In this document: positions 8,525 to 47,988 of the stretch, one piece after another
Layout: every line of letters starts with the position of its first letter
How positions within the stretch are numbered: position 1 is the first letter of the stretch
Source: a virus
Length of the DNA stretch: 64,000 nucleotides
Strand: one strand, 5' to 3'
IMG/VR virus record: IMGVR_UViG_3300024252_000004
Coordinates: 280,770-344,769 of that record
Notes under the pieces: model-generated
Seen by the model: the letters and a program-made list of their open reading frames with translations, nothing else
Database searches by the model: none
Told to the model about the DNA's origin: nothing
Program-made: the position numbers and the translations under genes

Positions 8525-8617
8525 TGCGGGGTCGACTAGTCTGGCCCATGTCACCAGTCTCATAAGCTGGCTCTGAGTATACCTCAATCGTTGGTTCAAA
8601 TCCAACCCCCGCACCCA
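8525..8617 (+). tRNA. tRNA-like, anticodon CAT on class-II scaffold (19-nt variable arm), CCA encoded
   Basis: acceptor TGCGGGG/CCCCGCA perfect, D stem GAC/GTC, anticodon stem CCAGT/GCTGG loop CTCATAA, variable arm hairpin TGAG-TATAC-CTCA, T arm identical to tRNA 2556. Confidence 0.5.
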
Positions 8618-12990: not shown

Positions 12991-13130
12991 TATTTGTGAA
13001 GCGATACATCGATAAACACTGACCACGGCTACGGGCGGGATGATGAAGGGGCAGTAGCCTGTCCCAAATCGCTCACAAATATACTTTCGGGACAGTCTCT
13101 TGTAGGAAAGATTACGCGCGTGACATCGGT

Positions 13131-13664
13131 TCAATTCCGATCTGTTCCACCACTGAATCGTCCATCACCTGATAGGAAGTGATCAACTTCGTGACAGGTC
13201 GGACAAACAATCTCTAAGTTCTCAATCGAGTTATTCTCTCTATTGCGATCTTTATGATGAACTTGTAGAACTTCAGGATGCTTATCGTATCCGCAATGAG
13301 AGCATATCTGTTCAAGATGCTCTTTTGCAGTTTTGCGATAATCCTTTCGGTTATCAGTATAGTGCGGCGGATGAATTTCTTTTATCCCTCCTATCCTTTG
13401 TGCAATATCTTTGCAATTTCTTGAGCAAAAAACAAATCCGCTTTTAGATGCAGCAATCTTAGAGGCAGACCTGTAAAAGTCTTTATCACAAATAGCACAA
13501 ACACAATTTGGCTTTTGTATCTTCGGATTTTTCTTTCTCCATTCAAAAGAGCATTTGCGATTGCAAAATTTTGCGTTTCCTCTGTTTAATTCTTTAATTT
13601 CTGCATCAAATTGCGTATAACAATTTAAGCAACTTTTCTTAATGGTTCTACCTTTGTAAGACAT
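13131..13664 (-). CDS. HNH homing endonuclease
   Basis: HHKDRNRENNSIENLEIVCPTCH HNH motif plus multiple CxxC pairs; sits between tRNA-Tyr and tRNA-Cys. Confidence 0.75.
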   Translation of the reverse strand: MSYKGRTIKKSCLNCYTQFDAEIKELNRGNAKFCNRKCSFEWRKKNPKIQKPNCVCAICDKDFYRSASKIAASKSGFVFCSRNCKDIAQRIGGIKEIHPPHYTDNRKDYRKTAKEHLEQICSHCGYDKHPEVLQVHHKDRNRENNSIENLEIVCPTCHEVDHFLSGDGRFSGGTDRN

Positions 13665-13685: not shown

Positions 13686-13761
13686 GGGGCCTTAGCTCAA
13701 TTGGGAGAGCGCGACATTTGCAATGTCGAGGTCGCGAGTTCGATCCTCGCAGGCTCCACCA
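13686..13761 (+). tRNA. tRNA-Cys(GCA), CCA encoded
   Basis: acceptor GGGGCCT/AGGCTCC, anticodon stem CGACA/TGTCG loop TTTGCAA, T arm GCGAG-TTCGATC-CTCGC. Confidence 0.7.
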
Positions 13762-14365: not shown

Positions 14366-14452
14366 GCTACTGTGGCCGAGCGGTTGAAGGCAGCAGGCTG
14401 TTAACCTGCCTGGGAAACCACATCATAGGTTCAAATCCTATCGGTAGCGCCA
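14366..14452 (+). tRNA. tRNA with tRNA-Ser body (D arm TGGCCGAGCGGTTGAAGGC, long variable arm, G73) but anticodon GTT
   Basis: acceptor GCTACTG/CGGTAGC, anticodon stem GCAGG/CCTGC loop CTGTTAA (one change from Ser GCT loop CTGCTAA), CCA encoded. Confidence 0.5.
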
Positions 14453-15288: not shown

Positions 15289-15704
15289 AAAGAGTTTATG
15301 TTGATATGGACGGAGTCCTTTGTGATTACGTTGCAAAATTTACAGAACTCCGTAACGAAGGAAACAAGTTTCCTCAGCAAAGCTTTGACTTCTTCAGAAG
15401 TATGAAGCCTATGCCATCGGCTCTTGCAGCTATGGGAATACTATCTAAACATTTCGATGTTTGGATTTTGACTAAGCCTTCCTACAAAAACCCTATGTCT
15501 TATACAGAAAAGAGACTTTGGGTTGAGGACCATCTTGGTCTGGATTGGTGTAAGAAGCTGATCCTTTGTCCTGATAAGGGATTGGTTATAGGAGATTATC
15601 TTATTGATGATTTCTTGTGGCCTGAATTTCAAGGTGAACAAGTTCATTTTGGTTCAAATAGATTTCCAAATTGGAGATCGGTAATAGATTATATGCGCCC
15701 GTGA
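15246..15704 (+). CDS. HAD-superfamily 5'(3')-deoxyribonucleotidase-like phosphatase
   Basis: VYVDMDGVLCD motif I (DxDxV); start may be TTG 15284 rather than ATG 15246. Confidence 0.55.
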   Translation: MGMATRSCSGRNKLKRVYVDMDGVLCDYVAKFTELRNEGNKFPQQSFDFFRSMKPMPSALAAMGILSKHFDVWILTKPSYKNPMSYTEKRLWVEDHLGLDWCKKLILCPDKGLVIGDYLIDDFLWPEFQGEQVHFGSNRFPNWRSVIDYMRP

Positions 15705-15785
15705 GCCGAGTGGTTGATGGCCCCAGACTCTTAATCTGGTACAGGTAGTGCTGCAACGTAGGTTCGAATCCTACCGGGCGTACCA
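15695..15785 (+). tRNA. class-II scaffold tRNA with anticodon CTT (Lys codon AAG), A73, CCA encoded
   Basis: acceptor GCGCCCG/CGGGCGT, D arm GCC-GAGTGGTTGAT-GGC, anticodon stem CCAGA/TCTGG loop CTCTTAA, 18-nt variable arm, T-loop TTCGAAT. Confidence 0.5.
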
Positions 15786-15840
15786 TATAAAACGATAACA
15801 TAAATATATGAGCAGTTCATTTTAAATAGCGGAGACTTAG

Positions 15841-21690: not shown

Positions 21691-21768
21691 GGGGAATTAG
21701 CTCAATTGGCCAGAGCGGCAGATTCTAGACCTGCGACAGTGTGGGTTCGAGCCCCACATTCCCTACCA
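21691..21768 (+). tRNA. candidate amber-suppressor tRNA, anticodon CTA, tRNA-Trp-like body
   Basis: acceptor GGGGAAT/ATTCCCT, D arm GCTC-AATTGGCCA-GAGC, anticodon loop TTCTAGA on stem GCAGA/CCTGC (A-C mismatch at 31-39), 6-nt variable, T arm GTGGG-TTCGAGC-CCCAC, CCA encoded. Confidence 0.5.
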
Positions 21769-28490: not shown

Positions 28491-28922
28491 ATGGTTAAAA
28501 CATTCGAAACTGGAGGATACATTTGGATTTATCCAAATGTGGAAATATTGGATAAAGCTTTGAAAAAGCATAATCGGTTGGGCGGTCTTGATACAGGATT
28601 TCTCGCCAATTGCAGACCAGATGTAAGCTTAGCTTATGGCCTTTGGAATGAGAACCTTTACCGATTTGATTGCGAAACGGATCCAGAAGAAAGAATTTAT
28701 AAGTTTCCAGATACAGAAGTTTCTTTTGTAATTCGTATAGGAAGTGATGGCCGACACTATATCACGTCACATAACGGATTAACTTTGGAACAATATGGTG
28801 CAATGCTATTGGGCTATTCAACGAAACGGTATCTGGAAATGACAGAATCTGAATTTGAAAAAGAGATTGAAAGGCGCAACGAGCCTCCCTCTTCTTCTTT
28901 TGAAAACGATTTTCTATTTTAA
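28491..28922 (+). CDS. hypothetical protein
   Basis: 143-aa ORF. Confidence 0.45.
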   Translation: MVKTFETGGYIWIYPNVEILDKALKKHNRLGGLDTGFLANCRPDVSLAYGLWNENLYRFDCETDPEERIYKFPDTEVSFVIRIGSDGRHYITSHNGLTLEQYGAMLLGYSTKRYLEMTESEFEKEIERRNEPPSSSFENDFLF

Positions 28923-28928
28923 AATTAT

Positions 28929-29225
28929 GGGGGTATCAGGTCTGTTTCAGACCGATTCCGGGCGGCCCACACGATCAGTGGGACGGGTGAGAGGATTGCT
29001 CACTGCCCCCGCCAGTTTTGGGAATATATAGGCCAAGGTACAACGGCCGCTTTCAAAGCAGTATTCATGATATCTGCGCAGGAGAATTACCTGCTATTCC
29101 CGCCAGTTAGATTAGTTTTGGGGAGTGGGTGGACTGGTTCGAGTCCAGATAGAAAGGTTATACCCTACCCGCATGGCAAAGGATCGCGCGTCCGACTTTA
29201 GGTTCGAATCCTAAACTCTCCACCA
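28929..29225 (+). ncRNA. ~300-nt ORF-free structured RNA with tRNA-like 3' end and alanine-identity-like G3-U70/A73 (tmRNA-like? class unknown)
   Basis: 5' GGGGG..; 3' TTAGG-TTCGAAT-CCTAA + ACTCTCC-A-CCA; internal second T-arm-like GGACTGG-TTCGAGT-CCAG; no canonical tag reading frame. Confidence 0.3.
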
Positions 29226-29241
29226 TTTAAAAAGGAATTTA

Positions 29242-29508
29242 ATGTTTGTTGTTCACTTCAAATCAGAATCTGGTGACAATTACTACTCAGCTTTCGAAAG
29301 AAAGCCTGACGATTACGAATTGAAAGTTTGGATCATTTATCATTGGCCTGAATCAATTGAAGATGGCGTCTGCTATATTCATGTTAATAGCGTTACAGAG
29401 TGTGAGTTTTATGACGTAGACGAAGGTGATTTGGATCTCAGAGAGTTGCCGTATCCCGACAAAGTGGAGTGGATGTTGCCGTATCCCGACAAAGTGGAGT
29501 GGATGTAA
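29242..29508 (+). CDS. hypothetical protein with duplicated LPYPDKVEWM C-terminus
   Basis: 88-aa ORF; C-terminal 20 aa encoded by tandem repeat 29445-29504. Confidence 0.4.
   Translation: MFVVHFKSESGDNYYSAFERKPDDYELKVWIIYHWPESIEDGVCYIHVNSVTECEFYDVDEGDLDLRELPYPDKVEWMLPYPDKVEWM
29445..29504 (+). repeat. perfect tandem duplication, 2 x 30 bp (GTTGCCGTATCCCGACAAAGTGGAGTGGAT)
   Basis: identical adjacent 30-mers, in frame. Confidence 0.9.
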
Positions 29509-39858: not shown

Positions 39859-40554
39859 ATGGATTCCGCGAAATATCCCAGGTCGCTGCATTGGCCGAGT
39901 TCCCCAGGAACTACCTCAGATGACCGTTTCATTACACAGGCACAAGCGCTCGCATTTCTAAATGTCGAGACTGTGCTTACCGAAAAGCTTGACGGTGGAA
40001 ATACTACCATAACGAGAGATGCCTTTTTTGCAAGGTCTCATGGTGGAGAACCAGCTCACCCGTCATTCAATCTTCTACGCACCCTTCATAAGAATTATCT
40101 ATGTAGGGCCATTGATAAAAATATATCAGTATTTGCTGAGTGGTGCTTCGCAGTACACTCAATTAGGTACTCGATGCTTCAAGATTATCTCAACATTATC
40201 GCCGTCAGGAATGATGAAACCGGCGAATGGTGGGATTGGGACGAAGTATGTTTGATGGCTGATCACCTCGGCTTCCCCACTGTACCAGTTCTACTCCGTG
40301 GAACGTTTACAGACATAGGCGCCTTGGAAAAAACTATGACCACGTTCTCTGGCTTGTCGTCTTTGTACGGCCCAACAAGAGAAGGTGTAGTTCTAAGAAA
40401 AGTCAAGGGTGTTGCTGAGATCAAAGACGAGCGTGGTCTTTGCTTAGATGGTCTTGCTAAGTGGGTAAGAGAAGATCATGTTCAAACGGACGAACATTGG
40501 AGCAAGAAGAAAGTTGAAATTCAGCCAACCATATCGGCACTGAGTTTTATGTAA
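39859..40554 (+). CDS. ATP-dependent RNA ligase (RNA_ligase/DRB0094-like family)
   Basis: KYPRSLHWPSSPG..DD N-terminal signature and nucleotidyltransferase motif I TEKLDGGN (KxDG). Confidence 0.6.
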   Translation: MDSAKYPRSLHWPSSPGTTSDDRFITQAQALAFLNVETVLTEKLDGGNTTITRDAFFARSHGGEPAHPSFNLLRTLHKNYLCRAIDKNISVFAEWCFAVHSIRYSMLQDYLNIIAVRNDETGEWWDWDEVCLMADHLGFPTVPVLLRGTFTDIGALEKTMTTFSGLSSLYGPTREGVVLRKVKGVAEIKDERGLCLDGLAKWVREDHVQTDEHWSKKKVEIQPTISALSFM

Positions 40555-41561: not shown

Positions 41562-41989
41562 ATAGAATATACAAATACGCCGAACTTCCTCCAGAAAAAG
41601 GAGTAGTTAAGTTCGGCTGGGGAGCTACAGAGGAAATGCCAGAGACAGATTACGTCTTAGGCTATCATTCCCGTTCTAAGTTCGCCACAGAGGAAGAGGT
41701 CAGTCTTTCTCGCAAAGAAGGGACTAATGCAGCCTCCGTGGCTGATTACACAAAGTTTCTGCAAAGCCTTACAGGAAGTACTCCAGAAGCATTCTATGAG
41801 AAATGGGATGGAAAAGAGGATGAGCTTAAGGCTTTTTGGTCAGCAAATTTCAGCAATGCCGATCCCAAACAATATCTATTTGTTTGGAAGCTATCAAGAC
41901 TGTTAGTCACTGGCAAGAAATTCGTAATGTATAGTAGGGGATTTAGGCTGGTGAAAAATGAGACAGGAGACACGCCGACAGAGGTATAA
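41552..41989 (+). CDS. hypothetical protein
   Basis: 145-aa ORF (GTG start). Confidence 0.4.
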   Translation: MEVDRIYKYAELPPEKGVVKFGWGATEEMPETDYVLGYHSRSKFATEEEVSLSRKEGTNAASVADYTKFLQSLTGSTPEAFYEKWDGKEDELKAFWSANFSNADPKQYLFVWKLSRLLVTGKKFVMYSRGFRLVKNETGDTPTEV

Positions 41990-42476
41990 TGGGAAAAAGA
42001 ATGATGCAATTTCTTTACCGCTTAGCATTGTCACGGTCAACTTTGATTTTGATGACAATCTTGCTTTCACAATCAGAACCGCTGCTTGCTATGGTGTGGG
42101 CACTATTTATGTAATAGGCTCCGTACCGGACAGAAGTTTTTTGAACTCTCGCTCCGGCAGTCTGTATGACTACGTTGACATCTACTCTTTCTCTCAGCCG
42201 AGAGACTTTACAGAGTTTGCAAAGAAGAACGGGTATAATATAGTGTCGGCCGAGCTTTCGGATGATTCTGTAAGCCTGTTCGATTACAAATTCGACATGG
42301 ACACGCATACGTGTCTGGTGTTAGGCCATGAAACAACTGGCGTACCCATCGAATGTACCTTGAATGGAGATAATGTTTTCATACCAATGCTCGGAGTAGG
42401 GTTTTGTTTGAATACGTCCCAGACAGGAACAGCAATCATGACAGAGTATGTTCGTCAGTATTTGGAGAGAAAATGA
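41958..42476 (+). CDS. SpoU/TrmH-family RNA 2'-O-methyltransferase (SPOUT)
   Basis: CLVLGHETTGVP..FIPMLG..LNTSQTGTAIM matches SpoU motifs 2 and 3. Confidence 0.6.
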   Translation: MRQETRRQRYNGKKNDAISLPLSIVTVNFDFDDNLAFTIRTAACYGVGTIYVIGSVPDRSFLNSRSGSLYDYVDIYSFSQPRDFTEFAKKNGYNIVSAELSDDSVSLFDYKFDMDTHTCLVLGHETTGVPIECTLNGDNVFIPMLGVGFCLNTSQTGTAIMTEYVRQYLERK

Positions 42477-44443: not shown

Positions 44444-44846
44444 GGGGGCGTTTTGGATTCGACCGGGTAACAGATAGGAATAGTGCAAGCCGATCAAGGT
44501 AACTCAGATCGTTATAAGCGTTACAAAAAACAAACTAGTTGACGACTATTCATTCGTGTACGCAAACGCAGGCAGAGGCTTCGGCGCTCCTGTAGTAGCA
44601 TACGCCTAATTCCGATTTAGGCATGTGGACTCTGTGTTCCATATATCCAAACACAGATAAGTGGTTGAACGCACTGACATAAACATTGTTCAAAAATGGA
44701 GTAGCCCGAAAGGGAGGAGGCGTCTATCATTTGGCGTCAGGGGATAAAATGAATACTTTGCCTATTTAGAGAAATGGGATAAGCTTGTGAACGACTTGAA
44801 ATTGACGTTATGCGACACGAGGGTTCGACTCCCTCCGCCTCCACCA
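44444..44846 (+). ncRNA. ssrA: tmRNA (SsrA), standard one-piece
   Basis: 5' GGGGGCGTTTTGGATTCGACCGGG and 3' GAGGGTTCGACTCCCTCCGCCTCCACCA match tmRNA termini; acceptor GGGGGCG/CGCCTCC with G3-U70 and A73; tag frame GCA AAC GCA GGC AGA GGC TTC GGC GCT CCT GTA GTA GCA TAC GCC TAA (ANAGRGFGAPVVAYA). Confidence 0.85.
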
Positions 44847-47200: not shown

Positions 47201-47408
47201 GCTAAATATTCCTTATGCCCTTAAGGTAAAGGACTATCACGATCTATATGATTACGCTAAGATGTTTAAGAACCTTAGTGTGCTTATAGAAATGGAAGAG
47301 ATCGGATTTGATGGCACTGATTATATCGGCATCGTCTACATAGATAAAGGTTCAGAGTATGAGGCTTTGAGGCGAGAACTCATTGAGGATACGTGGCAAG
47401 TCGTATAG
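47187..47408 (+). CDS. hypothetical protein
   Basis: ATG 47187 overlapping previous stop; longer ORF from 47037 lies inside previous gene. Confidence 0.35.
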   Translation: MKKVELNIPYALKVKDYHDLYDYAKMFKNLSVLIEMEEIGFDGTDYIGIVYIDKGSEYEALRRELIEDTWQVV

Positions 47409-47418
47409 AGAGGTAACA

Positions 47419-47988
47419 ATGAATGAGATAACCATAGCTGGAGCAAGATTCCTCGTCGGAAAATTGCCGGAGCATCTAACCCTTGACAAGGATGAGTTCG
47501 AAAAGCTATGGGAGATTCGTCCGTCACATTTCAATGCGATCAGGATGTTTGACAAAGAAGTCTTTATCCCAAGATGGCAACAAGCCTATGGGAAAAATTA
47601 TTTCTTTTCAAACCAGACAAGCGAAGCGCTGCCGATCACAAAAGAACTTGAGCCGTTTCTGCTATGGGCACAGACATTCAATCCTGCATATAACGGGTTG
47701 CTTCTTAACTGGTACGACTCCGATCTAAAGCACTACATAGGTAGGCATACGGATAGCACCACAGGACTCGTAAAGGGCTCGCATATAATTACCGCATCAC
47801 TTGGTGCAGACAGAGCCTTCCGAATTAGGGAGCGCGGTAAGGGTAAAGGTTTTGAGGACTATATTGTCTCTAACGGTTCTGTAGTTGTCATACCTTGGGA
47901 GACCAACCGCACGCACACGCACGAGGTTCCTTATCATGGGAAGTACTCAGGCAAAAGAATTTCTGTAACAGCAAGGGCATTTGTATGA
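47419..47988 (+). CDS. AlkB-like 2OG-Fe(II) dioxygenase
   Basis: ATG 47419; GRHTD (HxD), LGADRAFRIR, VIPWETNRTHTHEVP second His region, fits AlkB family. Confidence 0.6.
   Translation: MNEITIAGARFLVGKLPEHLTLDKDEFEKLWEIRPSHFNAIRMFDKEVFIPRWQQAYGKNYFFSNQTSEALPITKELEPFLLWAQTFNPAYNGLLLNWYDSDLKHYIGRHTDSTTGLVKGSHIITASLGADRAFRIRERGKGKGFEDYIVSNGSVVVIPWETNRTHTHEVPYHGKYSGKRISVTARAFV

Follow-up and report, generated by a model that had tools for sequence, protein, structure and literature searches.

The region 28929-29225 of the window (the window being the whole 64-kb stretch of DNA that was analysed) probably holds three independent genes, designated E1, E2 and E3, for non-decoding, tRNA-shaped stable RNAs lying in the tRNA array of a jumbo phage, and the third of these resembles the tRNA-like domain (TLD) of tmRNA. 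The window comes from a jumbo phage that is uncultured and carries a long tRNA array. The proteins flanking the region are found without change on metagenome contigs, the longest of 414,644 nt, all 31 tRNAs that ARAGORN calls in the window are on the + strand, and the phage has a full tmRNA of 403 nt (44444-44846). Other genes in the window encode aspartate carbamoyltransferase, adenylosuccinate synthetase, IMP dehydrogenase, GroEL, a 2OG-Fe(II) oxygenase, an RNA ligase and a SpoU-type methyltransferase. A promoter and terminator scan found nothing near the region that exceeds background.

Diverged lineages with DNA were reached by searches with the neighbouring proteins and are referred to as L012 (neighbour protein 76% and Band_7 protein 78% identical) and L017 (Band_7 protein 71% identical). 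P0002 has a neighbour protein that is 84% identical. L013 and L014 (Band_7 69%) carry no elements of the kind described below. Eleven contigs with the neighbouring proteins belong to the same phage and differ by at most one SNP in the region, and are therefore uninformative for covariation. No DNA relative of the region was found among GenBank phages, the 143-aa neighbour had no relative in the IMG/VR search, and the exact E1 or E3 motifs had no IMG/VR match. A pattern scan of metagenomes gave two matches, both in coding DNA and attributable to chance. The features of the region are as follows.

28929-29014, + strand: E1, an 86-nt tRNA-like gene with homologs at L012:2084-2166 and L017:2493-2579 that show compensatory changes
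28929-28935 and 29004-29010, + strand: E1 acceptor, GGGGGUA/UGCCCCC
28939-28953, + strand: E1 D hairpin
28954-28960, + strand: E1 linker GAUUCCG, conserved
about 28963-28985, + strand: E1 variable hairpin
28987-29003, + strand: E1 T arm, GUGAG-AGGAUUG-CUCAC
29011 and 29012-29014, + strand: E1 3' end, G73 and CCA
29015-29019, + strand: 5-nt spacer GUUUU between E1 and E2, which puts U at -1 of E2
29020-29105, + strand: E2, an 86-nt paralog of E1, acceptor GGGAAUA/UAUUCCC
within E2, + strand: D arm GGCC-AAGGUACAAC-GGCC and linker GCUUUCA
29058-29077, + strand: E2 hairpin
29078-29094, + strand: E2 T arm, GCAGG-AGAAUUA-CCUGC
29102 and 29103-29105, + strand: E2 3' end, G73 and CCA
29106-29119, + strand: 14-nt spacer GUUAGAUUAGUUUU between E2 and E3
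29120-29225, + strand: E3, a 106-nt tRNA-like gene with a homolog at L012:2717-2823, 86% identical
within E3, + strand: acceptor GGGGAGU/ACUCUCC, followed by A73 (29222) and CCA (29223-29225)
29127-29170, + strand: inserted 5' domain of E3, 44 nt, as folded, containing a T-loop-like hairpin and an A-rich stretch
29134-29148, + strand: E3 internal hairpin CUGG-UUCGAGU-CCAG, identical in L012
29171-29197, + strand: E3 single strand GCAUGGCAAA, hairpin GGAU-CGCGC-GUCC (29181-29193) and GACU
29198-29214, + strand: E3 T arm, UUAGG-UUCGAAU-CCUAA, its T loop canonical

Three modules or one 300-nt RNA

An earlier note on this DNA had read the region as a single structured RNA of about 300 nt, closed by pairing of GGGGG at its 5' end with CUCUCC at its 3' end, and possibly either a tmRNA, divergent or in two pieces, or a tRNA carrying a very large insertion. 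The strings quoted there are all present, with GGGGGTA at 28929 and GGGGAGT at 29120, and both the 3' end TTAGG-TTCGAAT-CCTAA-ACTCTCC-A-CCA (29198-29225) and a second T-arm-like element CTGG-TTCGAGT-CCAG (29134-29148) are borne out. The proposed closing helix is not, since GGGGGTA and ACTCTCC (29215-29221) pair at only five of seven positions and then run into two mismatches, whereas each module pairs seven of seven with a partner of its own: GGGGGTA with TGCCCCC at 29004-29010, then G-CCA; GGGAATA (29020) with TATTCCC (29095-29101), then G-CCA; and GGGGAGT (29120) with the 3' ACTCTCC, G3·U70 included. The G3·U70 and A73 noticed at the 3' end are thus real, but the partner strand is GGGGAGT at 29120 and not the GGGGG at 28929.

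In every module a 5-bp stem bearing a 7-nt loop abuts the 3' acceptor strand on its 5' side. A mechanical scan for such an arrangement (7-bp acceptor with G·U allowed, 5/7/5 hairpin and N-CCA, in a total of 68-120 nt) returned 31 distinct sites on the + strand, comprising 27 called tRNAs, E1, E2, E3 and one site near 13100. The - strand has a single such site, and 60 dinucleotide shuffles average 0.5 (at most 2). The tRNA-like signal is well beyond chance, yet there are three signals rather than one. Perfect 7-bp stems and an intact CCA are found in all the window modules and in the L012 and L017 copies, and U stands at -1 in every copy from the window and the relatives; for E2, where the spacer supplies this U, a link to the preference of RNase P may be supposed.

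Some observations do speak for one large RNA, as in the free minimum-energy fold of the 300 nt some of the 5' G run is paired to the 3' end, and ARAGORN, run at -ps80 with introns allowed, draws a 'tRNA-SeC' at 29021-29225 with a 115-nt intron. At its default thresholds, however, ARAGORN is negative, also in intron mode, and there is no group I intron match at E≤10, so that there is no support for a tRNA holding an intron or a large insertion. The fold of the whole 300 nt is no better than those of shuffled sequences (z = -0.57), hence there is no thermodynamic case for one large structure. The comparison with tmRNA models that the earlier note had suggested was run with all those of Rfam 15 on 28850-29300 and gave no match at E≤10, the permuted or two-piece model RF04321 and any older clade-specific permuted models of that release included, which speaks against a two-piece or permuted tmRNA; the models of Rfam 15 include the mitochondrial family RF02544. 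The same note had seen no canonical tag frame, and ARAGORN indeed finds neither a tmRNA nor a tag in the region. A further argument comes from the relatives. L012 has its E1 homolog (2084-2166) upstream of a 141-aa gene, between this gene and tRNA-Asp, and its E3 homolog (2717-2823) downstream of that gene, whereas in the window both E1 and E3 are past it; E2 is missing from L012 and the gap is taken by a different structured stretch. The 10 kb covered of L017 contain a single E1/E2-type element (2493-2579) and no E3. E1 and E3 are independent units because a protein gene parts them in L012, and arrangements that separate or omit modules exclude one RNA spanning all three, a reading to which we therefore assign only a very slight probability.

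That the region encodes small proteins is more improbable still, to the point of being negligible. It contains no open reading frame of 60 aa or more, as had been stated, and the longest one touching it is of 58 aa. Frames of 58, 44, 30 and 29 aa can be drawn, but the first begins inside the upstream gene in another frame, the substitutions between relatives preserve base pairs and are not codon-like, and the modules are rearranged in L012.

The E1/E2 family

E1, E2 and their homologs make up a family of four members from three phage lineages. The acceptor has 7 bp, with G1-C72, G2-C71 and A7-U66 invariant, and is followed by UCA (UAUA in E2) and a 4-bp D stem. Then comes a 7-nt single-stranded linker (GAUUCCG, GAAUCCG, GCAUCCG or GCUUUCA, consensus G-N-W-U-Y-C-R), a variable hairpin and a T arm whose loops (AGGAUUG, AGAAUUG, AGAAUUG and AGAAUUA) conform to AGRAUUR, which is invariant together with G73 and CCA. 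In E1 and E2 the acceptor has G-C at 3-70, without a G·U. A MAFFT alignment of the four members has 96.9% of its cells paired, and when the partners are slid by 1-3 columns as a control, just 33-56% are paired. Both sides have changed in 8 of the 16 pairs, the acceptor, D and T stems all showing compensatory change. The hairpin loops, on the other hand, are of 7, 4, 7 and 3 nt and unrelated (ACGAUCA, UGCG, GUUGGUA and CAU), and judged from the aligned sequences the family is without anything like a conserved anticodon. No more can be said than that the parts under selection are the acceptor end with G73, the D stem, the linker and the unusual T loop, the hairpin being exempt.

These elements escape the usual tools. 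ARAGORN misses E1 and E2, in intron mode likewise at default thresholds, and neither matches the Rfam tRNA model even at E≤10. A covariance model built from the family (R1) matches nothing beyond its four training sequences in the DNA searched, and 19 matches of an E1-family pattern in 185,579 prokaryotic genomes are attributable to chance, R1 confirming none. A pseudoknot between UCC of the E1 linker and GGA of its T loop was considered and dropped, as the pairing is broken in L012 and L017. The T loop could form a T-loop motif in which A54·U58 replaces U54·A58 and position 56 is a purine. An attractive interpretation, suggested by G73 and by a hairpin that abuts the T arm, is that E1 and E2 would be tRNA-Ser lacking the anticodon arm. 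E2 differs from E1 in having no counterpart at the same place in L012, and in one contig variant C29099A breaks its G3-C70 pair.

E3, element X and the tRNA-like domain of tmRNA

The acceptor of E3 consists of G1-C72, G2-C71, G3·U70, G4-C69, A5-U68, G6-C67 and U7-A66. Its inserted domain is closed by a helix of 29127-29132 with 29165-29170 (positions 8-13/46-51), in which L012 has A-U for G-C at 10-49 and A-U for G·U at 12-47. This domain holds 15 of the 18 differences between E3 and its L012 homolog. E3 is more conserved than its surroundings, with 86% identity between window and L012 as compared with 78% for tRNA-Asp and 68-80% for the neighbouring genes. The single strand CAUGGCAAAGGA is invariant between the two, while the loop of the 4-bp hairpin is CGCGC in the window and UUGCGC in L012, and a population variant, C29185U, falls inside it. 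With a hairpin loop of 5-6 nt, an anticodon arm of 5 bp and 7 nt cannot be drawn, and the only 44 nt between acceptor strand and linker hold no mRNA-like domain, resume codon or tag ORF. E3 thus has a TLD-like layout, without anticodon arm or tag and with a short helix and a GAC-like triplet before the T stem. In 28850-29300 it has no tmRNA model match at E≤10 (the curated threshold being 47 bits), and its only match of tRNA type is to tRNA-Sec, with 14 bits where the gathering threshold is 47. Only one sequenced ortholog of E3 exists and its acceptor is identical, so the conservation of G3·U70 rests on a paralog, element X, which lies elsewhere in the window.

13089-13152, + strand: X, a 64-nt candidate TLD-only tmRNA-like element, GGGACAG...CUGUUCC-A-CCA with G3·U70, located by model matches

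E3 and X have G3·U70 and A73 in common despite differing in other acceptor pairs. They also share the motif AAAG-N2-5-GCGCGT-N0-3-GAY, which occurs in the window only in these two (0.05 expected by chance) and stands just 5' of the T stem in both. A pattern derived from the GCGCGU/GAY module found nine IMG/VR loci. Three of these are acceptor pieces of permuted tmRNAs that ARAGORN detects (L022, L028 and L030), and another three (L025, L027 and L029) are elements of only 58-61 nt in phage tRNA arrays, which ARAGORN misses. These minis read GGGCAGG-(11-14 nt)-AUCG CGCG UGAU-GUGGG UUCGAUU CCCAC-CCUGUCC-A-CCA, with G3·U70, and L027 has a compensatory change from A5-U68 to U5-A68. The Rfam tmRNA model aligns to them from its position 1 to 374, the whole middle being deleted, and gives 19.6-28.2 bits (E 1e-6 to 2e-8), which is below the gathering score of 47 bits.

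A covariance model of the three minis (R2) has X as its best match in the window (13089-13152, 36.8 bits, E 2.6e-7) and gives E3 14.3 bits. The Rfam tmRNA model matches X over the same positions 1-374 at 20.8 bits (E 5e-7), and end to end it gives 20.8 bits for X, 19.6-28.2 and 23.7 bits for the minis and 34.7 bits for the element of phage DS6A. The last is the TLD-only tmRNA listed on the tmRNA Website as tmID 11587 and was located at JN698994 28478-28560. Because this model matches X and DS6A alike, end to end, X is a TLD-only tmRNA-like gene when judged as the accepted case, DS6A, is judged. A 105-nt form of X (13048-13152) was replaced by the 64-nt form that R2 and Rfam tmRNA both choose. 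R3, a model made from the E3 core without its insertion, gives 29.7-34.5 bits to the minis and 24.4 bits to X, values that overlap those of ordinary tRNAs (up to 34.4 and 26.7). RNAalifold on E3, its L012 homolog and X produced an artefact of the alignment, pairing the two palindromic UUCGA regions. E3 would hence be described as TLD-like in architecture and identity elements, with homology to the TLD plausible, and its 44-nt insertion may be the cause of its non-detection by the tmRNA model.

The closest precedent is DS6A, whose sequence is hardly more than a TLD (PMC4131195; PMC11915505). Like E3 it is phage-encoded and has a G3·U70/A73 acceptor, a canonical T arm and neither anticodon arm nor tag frame, and E3 shares with it the identity set and the order of hairpin, GAY and T arm. 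In contrast to DS6A, E3 is 106 nt long with a 44-nt domain right after the 5' acceptor strand, has no recognisable analogue of the D loop UGGNNUCGAC and is not detected by the tmRNA model; CCA is encoded in E3 where DS6A has ACTA. E1 and E2 differ from DS6A in having G73 and no G·U. Where DS6A is treated in PMC4131195 (citing Mao et al. 2009) and PMC11915505, a TLD molecule of this kind, chargeable or not, is described as strongly inhibiting the tmRNA of E. coli, perhaps through SmpB titration. Plastid and mitochondrial tmRNAs without CDS have also been reported (PMC11915505). These organellar forms (jakobid and oomycete mitochondria; about 65 nt in plastids) are like E3 in being a TLD without a tag frame, and a tag-less role with SmpB has been proposed for them (PMC11915505; PMC3590771), but they are organellar and their gene is often permuted.

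The standard tmRNA (RF00023, represented by the phage's own copy) has alanine identity and a T arm as E3 does, and an anticodon-free mode of entry would be common to both, whereas E3 is of about 100 rather than 350-400 nt and has no mRNA-like domain, tag ORF or pseudoknots. T4 species 1 and 2 (rnaC and rnaD) are likewise stable non-tRNA RNAs in a phage tRNA cluster, and rnaC ends in a canonical T arm, CCGGG-UUCGAAU-CCCGG, and an acceptor-like strand; however, they are of 119-139 nt, encode no CCA, lack G3·U70 and have no detectable sequence similarity to the modules. With canonical tRNAs the modules share the 7/5 acceptor-T architecture, the encoded CCA and the place in a tRNA array, but E1, E2 and E3 have no conserved anticodon arm, and in E1 and E2 the T loop is not UUCRANY and a 7-nt linker replaces nucleotide 26. 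The first four acceptor pairs of E. coli tRNA-Ala, G1-C72, G2-C71, G3·U70 and G4-C69, are those of E3, while the phage's own tRNA-Ala at 13686 (GGGGCCU/AGGCUCC) differs from E3 at 4-69, which is a G·U.

Possible roles and competing explanations

In the reading we favour, E1, E2 and E3 would be co-transcribed with the neighbouring tRNAs of the array, RNase P would cut their 5' ends next to the U at -1, and their 3' ends would be trimmed to CCA. An RCCA end is a contact of bacterial RNase P. E3 and X would then be charged with alanine by AlaRS, which is expected for E3 because it has the complete AlaRS acceptor-stem identity set and a canonical T arm. A minihelix of acceptor and T arm with G3·U70 and A73 suffices for AlaRS. 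Lacking both an anticodon arm and a tag reading frame, E3 would act like the lone tRNA-like domain of tmRNA, binding AlaRS, EF-Tu and SmpB, and for want of an anticodon and a tag frame both E3 and X would act only through factors of the acceptor-T half. E3 could compete with the host tmRNA, for which DS6A is the precedent, or carry out a tag-less rescue, and is probably an alanine-accepting, tag-less RNA of tmRNA-TLD type, a description taken from its sequence features. E1 and E2 would be a second kind of tRNA-body mimic, with G73 and the T loop AGRAUUR. No AlaRS gene was seen in the 64-kb window and no SmpB domain among 40 window ORFs scanned. From the RNA ligase and SpoU methylase encoded nearby it is clear that the phage invests in tRNA maintenance, which fits a decoy and an adaptor role alike and proves neither. 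As a separate observation, a TLD-type role for E3 has against it that the phage already possesses a full tmRNA.

The same features must be weighed against three other explanations. Were the modules real decoding tRNAs of aberrant shape, E1 would read with GAU and E2 with CAU (UUCAUGA) or UCA (UUUCAAA). Among the tRNAs called in the window there is none for Ser, Gly, Cys or His, E1 and E2 can each be drawn with a 7-nt loop, and relatives do contain non-canonical tRNAs that ARAGORN misses, such as L018:15730-15803, in which the CCA anticodon loop is good and the T loop odd. Nevertheless, decoding is unlikely because the loops of orthologs are not conserved, being unrelated among E1 and its L012 and L017 orthologs (7, 4 and 7 nt). 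The E1 loop, moreover, has C33 and C37 in place of U33 and a purine at 37, nucleotide 26 has given way to the 7-nt linker, the E3 loop is of only 5-6 nt and E1 and E2 have no Rfam tRNA match at E≤10. Functionless, decaying tRNA pseudogenes are less probable again. They would account for the failure of tRNA finders to recognise any of E1, E2 and E3, for the missing E2 counterpart in L012 and for the broken E2 acceptor pair on one contig. They would not, however, keep 8 of 16 pairs by changes on both sides across three lineages of the E1/E2 family, conserve E3 beyond a neighbouring bona fide tRNA and coding DNA, or retain perfect 7-bp stems and an intact CCA in all copies. Compensatory change and high conservation all but exclude decay for E1 and E3, whereas for E2 it is possible.

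Somewhat less improbable than either, though still doubtful, is that the elements are punctuation for processing, that is, RNase P or 3'-end sites that part or stabilise the flanking mRNAs, the excised RNAs having no role. The region lies 6 nt past a stop codon (28922) and 16 nt ahead of a start codon (29242), the conserved acceptor, T arm and RCCA are what RNase P reads, and the variable hairpins hold no conserved information. But three elements stand in tandem where one would do, punctuation needs neither the linkers (G-N-W-U-Y-C-R and CAUGGCAAAGGA) nor an invariant non-canonical T loop, and two paralogs with otherwise different stems keep G3·U70. Three independent genes for non-decoding, tRNA-shaped RNAs thus remain the reading we prefer.

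A phage TLD-only tmRNA (DS6A) and stable non-tRNA RNAs in a phage tRNA cluster (T4 rnaC and rnaD) were already known. What is new is E3 as a long, insertion-bearing form with alanine identity, its presence alongside a mini form (X) and a complete tmRNA in one genome, and the E1/E2 family with its non-canonical T loop. A bolder joint interpretation, which we put forward only tentatively, is that E1 and E2 represent an undescribed class of phage-encoded, anticodon-less tRNA-body mimics, whose T loop is 'flipped' (A54...U58, with a purine at 56) and whose conserved 7-nt linker stands at the site of nucleotide 26, that E3 is a long TLD-only tmRNA, and that together with X and the tmRNA they form aminoacylatable decoys or adaptors. 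Such a set might, on the same tentative footing, serve not in decoding but to reprogramme host ribosome rescue or to absorb tRNA-directed host defences. If E3 and X are indeed alanine-charged, tag-less TLDs, tampering with trans-translation would extend beyond DS6A and take more than one structural form, and there would be a direct handle on the effect of SmpB and tmRNA on infection. The E1/E2 family would add to the natural tRNA mimics a new one whose elbow is non-canonical, useful for finding which tRNA-binding factors need the acceptor-T half alone. Huge phages carry many tRNAs and sometimes a tmRNA, and their annotation ends at the calls of tRNA finders. Here, in a 64-kb window, four tRNA-shaped genes that compensatory evolution maintains go unseen by ARAGORN and, at curated thresholds, by Rfam, and the tRNA counts given for phage genomes are underestimates.

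The tmRNA, element X and unusual tRNAs of the window

The full-length tmRNA at 44444-44846 scores 81 bits, with a low alignment accuracy (0.49) through the middle, and its predicted tag, DDYSFVYANAGRGFGAPVVAYA, is unusually long. Clustered near it are three protein genes that together look like a toolkit for tRNA repair and modification:

39859-40551, RNA ligase (PF09414)
41958-42473, SpoU methyltransferase
47383-47985, 2OG-Fe(II) oxygenase

A fourth element of the window that is uncalled by the tRNA finder lies in the region 13048-13152 and is termed X. Its 64-nt form (13089-13152) is a tmRNA-like gene consisting only of the tRNA-like domain (TLD), and 5' of this form is a segment capable of forming a separate hairpin:

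13048-13065, GGGGCAG-UAGC-CUGUCCC

Alternatively, this segment can pair into a 105-nt long form of X, the energies of the two being nearly equal (−27.3 vs −28.1 kcal/mol).

Four tRNAs of the window have class II bodies, that is, long variable arms, and yet carry anticodons for Ile, Met, Asn, and Lys:

2556-2646, anticodon GAU (Ile)
8525-8617, anticodon CAU (Met)
14366-14452, anticodon GUU (Asn)
15695-15785, anticodon CUU (Lys)

The one with the Asn anticodon combines G73 with a Ser-like D arm, while that with the Lys anticodon combines A73 with a Leu-like D arm. All four are possible mis-sense or recoding tRNAs, and they recall the allo-tRNAs (PMC5389517). The array also includes a tRNA of the amber-suppressor type (21691-21768, anticodon CUA), which ARAGORN labels 'Pyl'. 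Directly 3' of E3, the last of three tandem tRNA-shaped genes (E1 to E3), an 88-aa ORF contains a perfect internal 30-nt tandem duplication (29446-29505), such that the C-terminus of its product has LPYPDKVEWM twice.

tRNA-like stretches in related phages

In the related phage contig L012, a structured stretch (2627-2715) is flanked by a 141-aa gene on one side and by E3 on the other. Its 5' end (..CA-UCA-GG) resembles that of E1, GAAAGCA/UGCUUUU make up an acceptor-like stem and GAUUCCG is present, but T arm and CCA are missing. The stretch could be a relative of E1 and its paralog E2, either degenerate or of a different kind. The contig of a more distant phage, L018, contains a 74-nt tRNA-like gene (15730-15803) that lacks a D stem and has a T loop of GGCAGCA, although its anticodon loop is a good one (CUCCAAA; CCA, Trp), as well as a Ser-like class II tRNA (13490-13576) with the loop CUAGAAA; ARAGORN calls neither of them.

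Small tRNA-like elements elsewhere

Salmonella jumbo phage 7t3 has an unannotated 58-nt mini tRNA-like element after tRNA-Glu (MK773491 6116-6173, equivalent to L031:1494-1551), in which the acceptor stem is A/U (AUAUAG/CUAUAU), without G·U, and the 3' end is A-CCA. The same match is present in four related jumbo phages. A candidate for a very small tmRNA is a 107-nt tRNA-like element on an IMG/VR contig (L024:12087-12193, minus strand; GGAAGAG...CUCUUCC-A-CCA, A3-U70). GGCGCG takes part in a long-range helix of this element, and an internal frame of it ends in GCG-UAA. A mini TLD lies in the tRNA array of a different IMG/VR contig, which also has a near-threshold match to manA RNA (L025:151-351, minus strand; 52.8 vs 55.2 bits).
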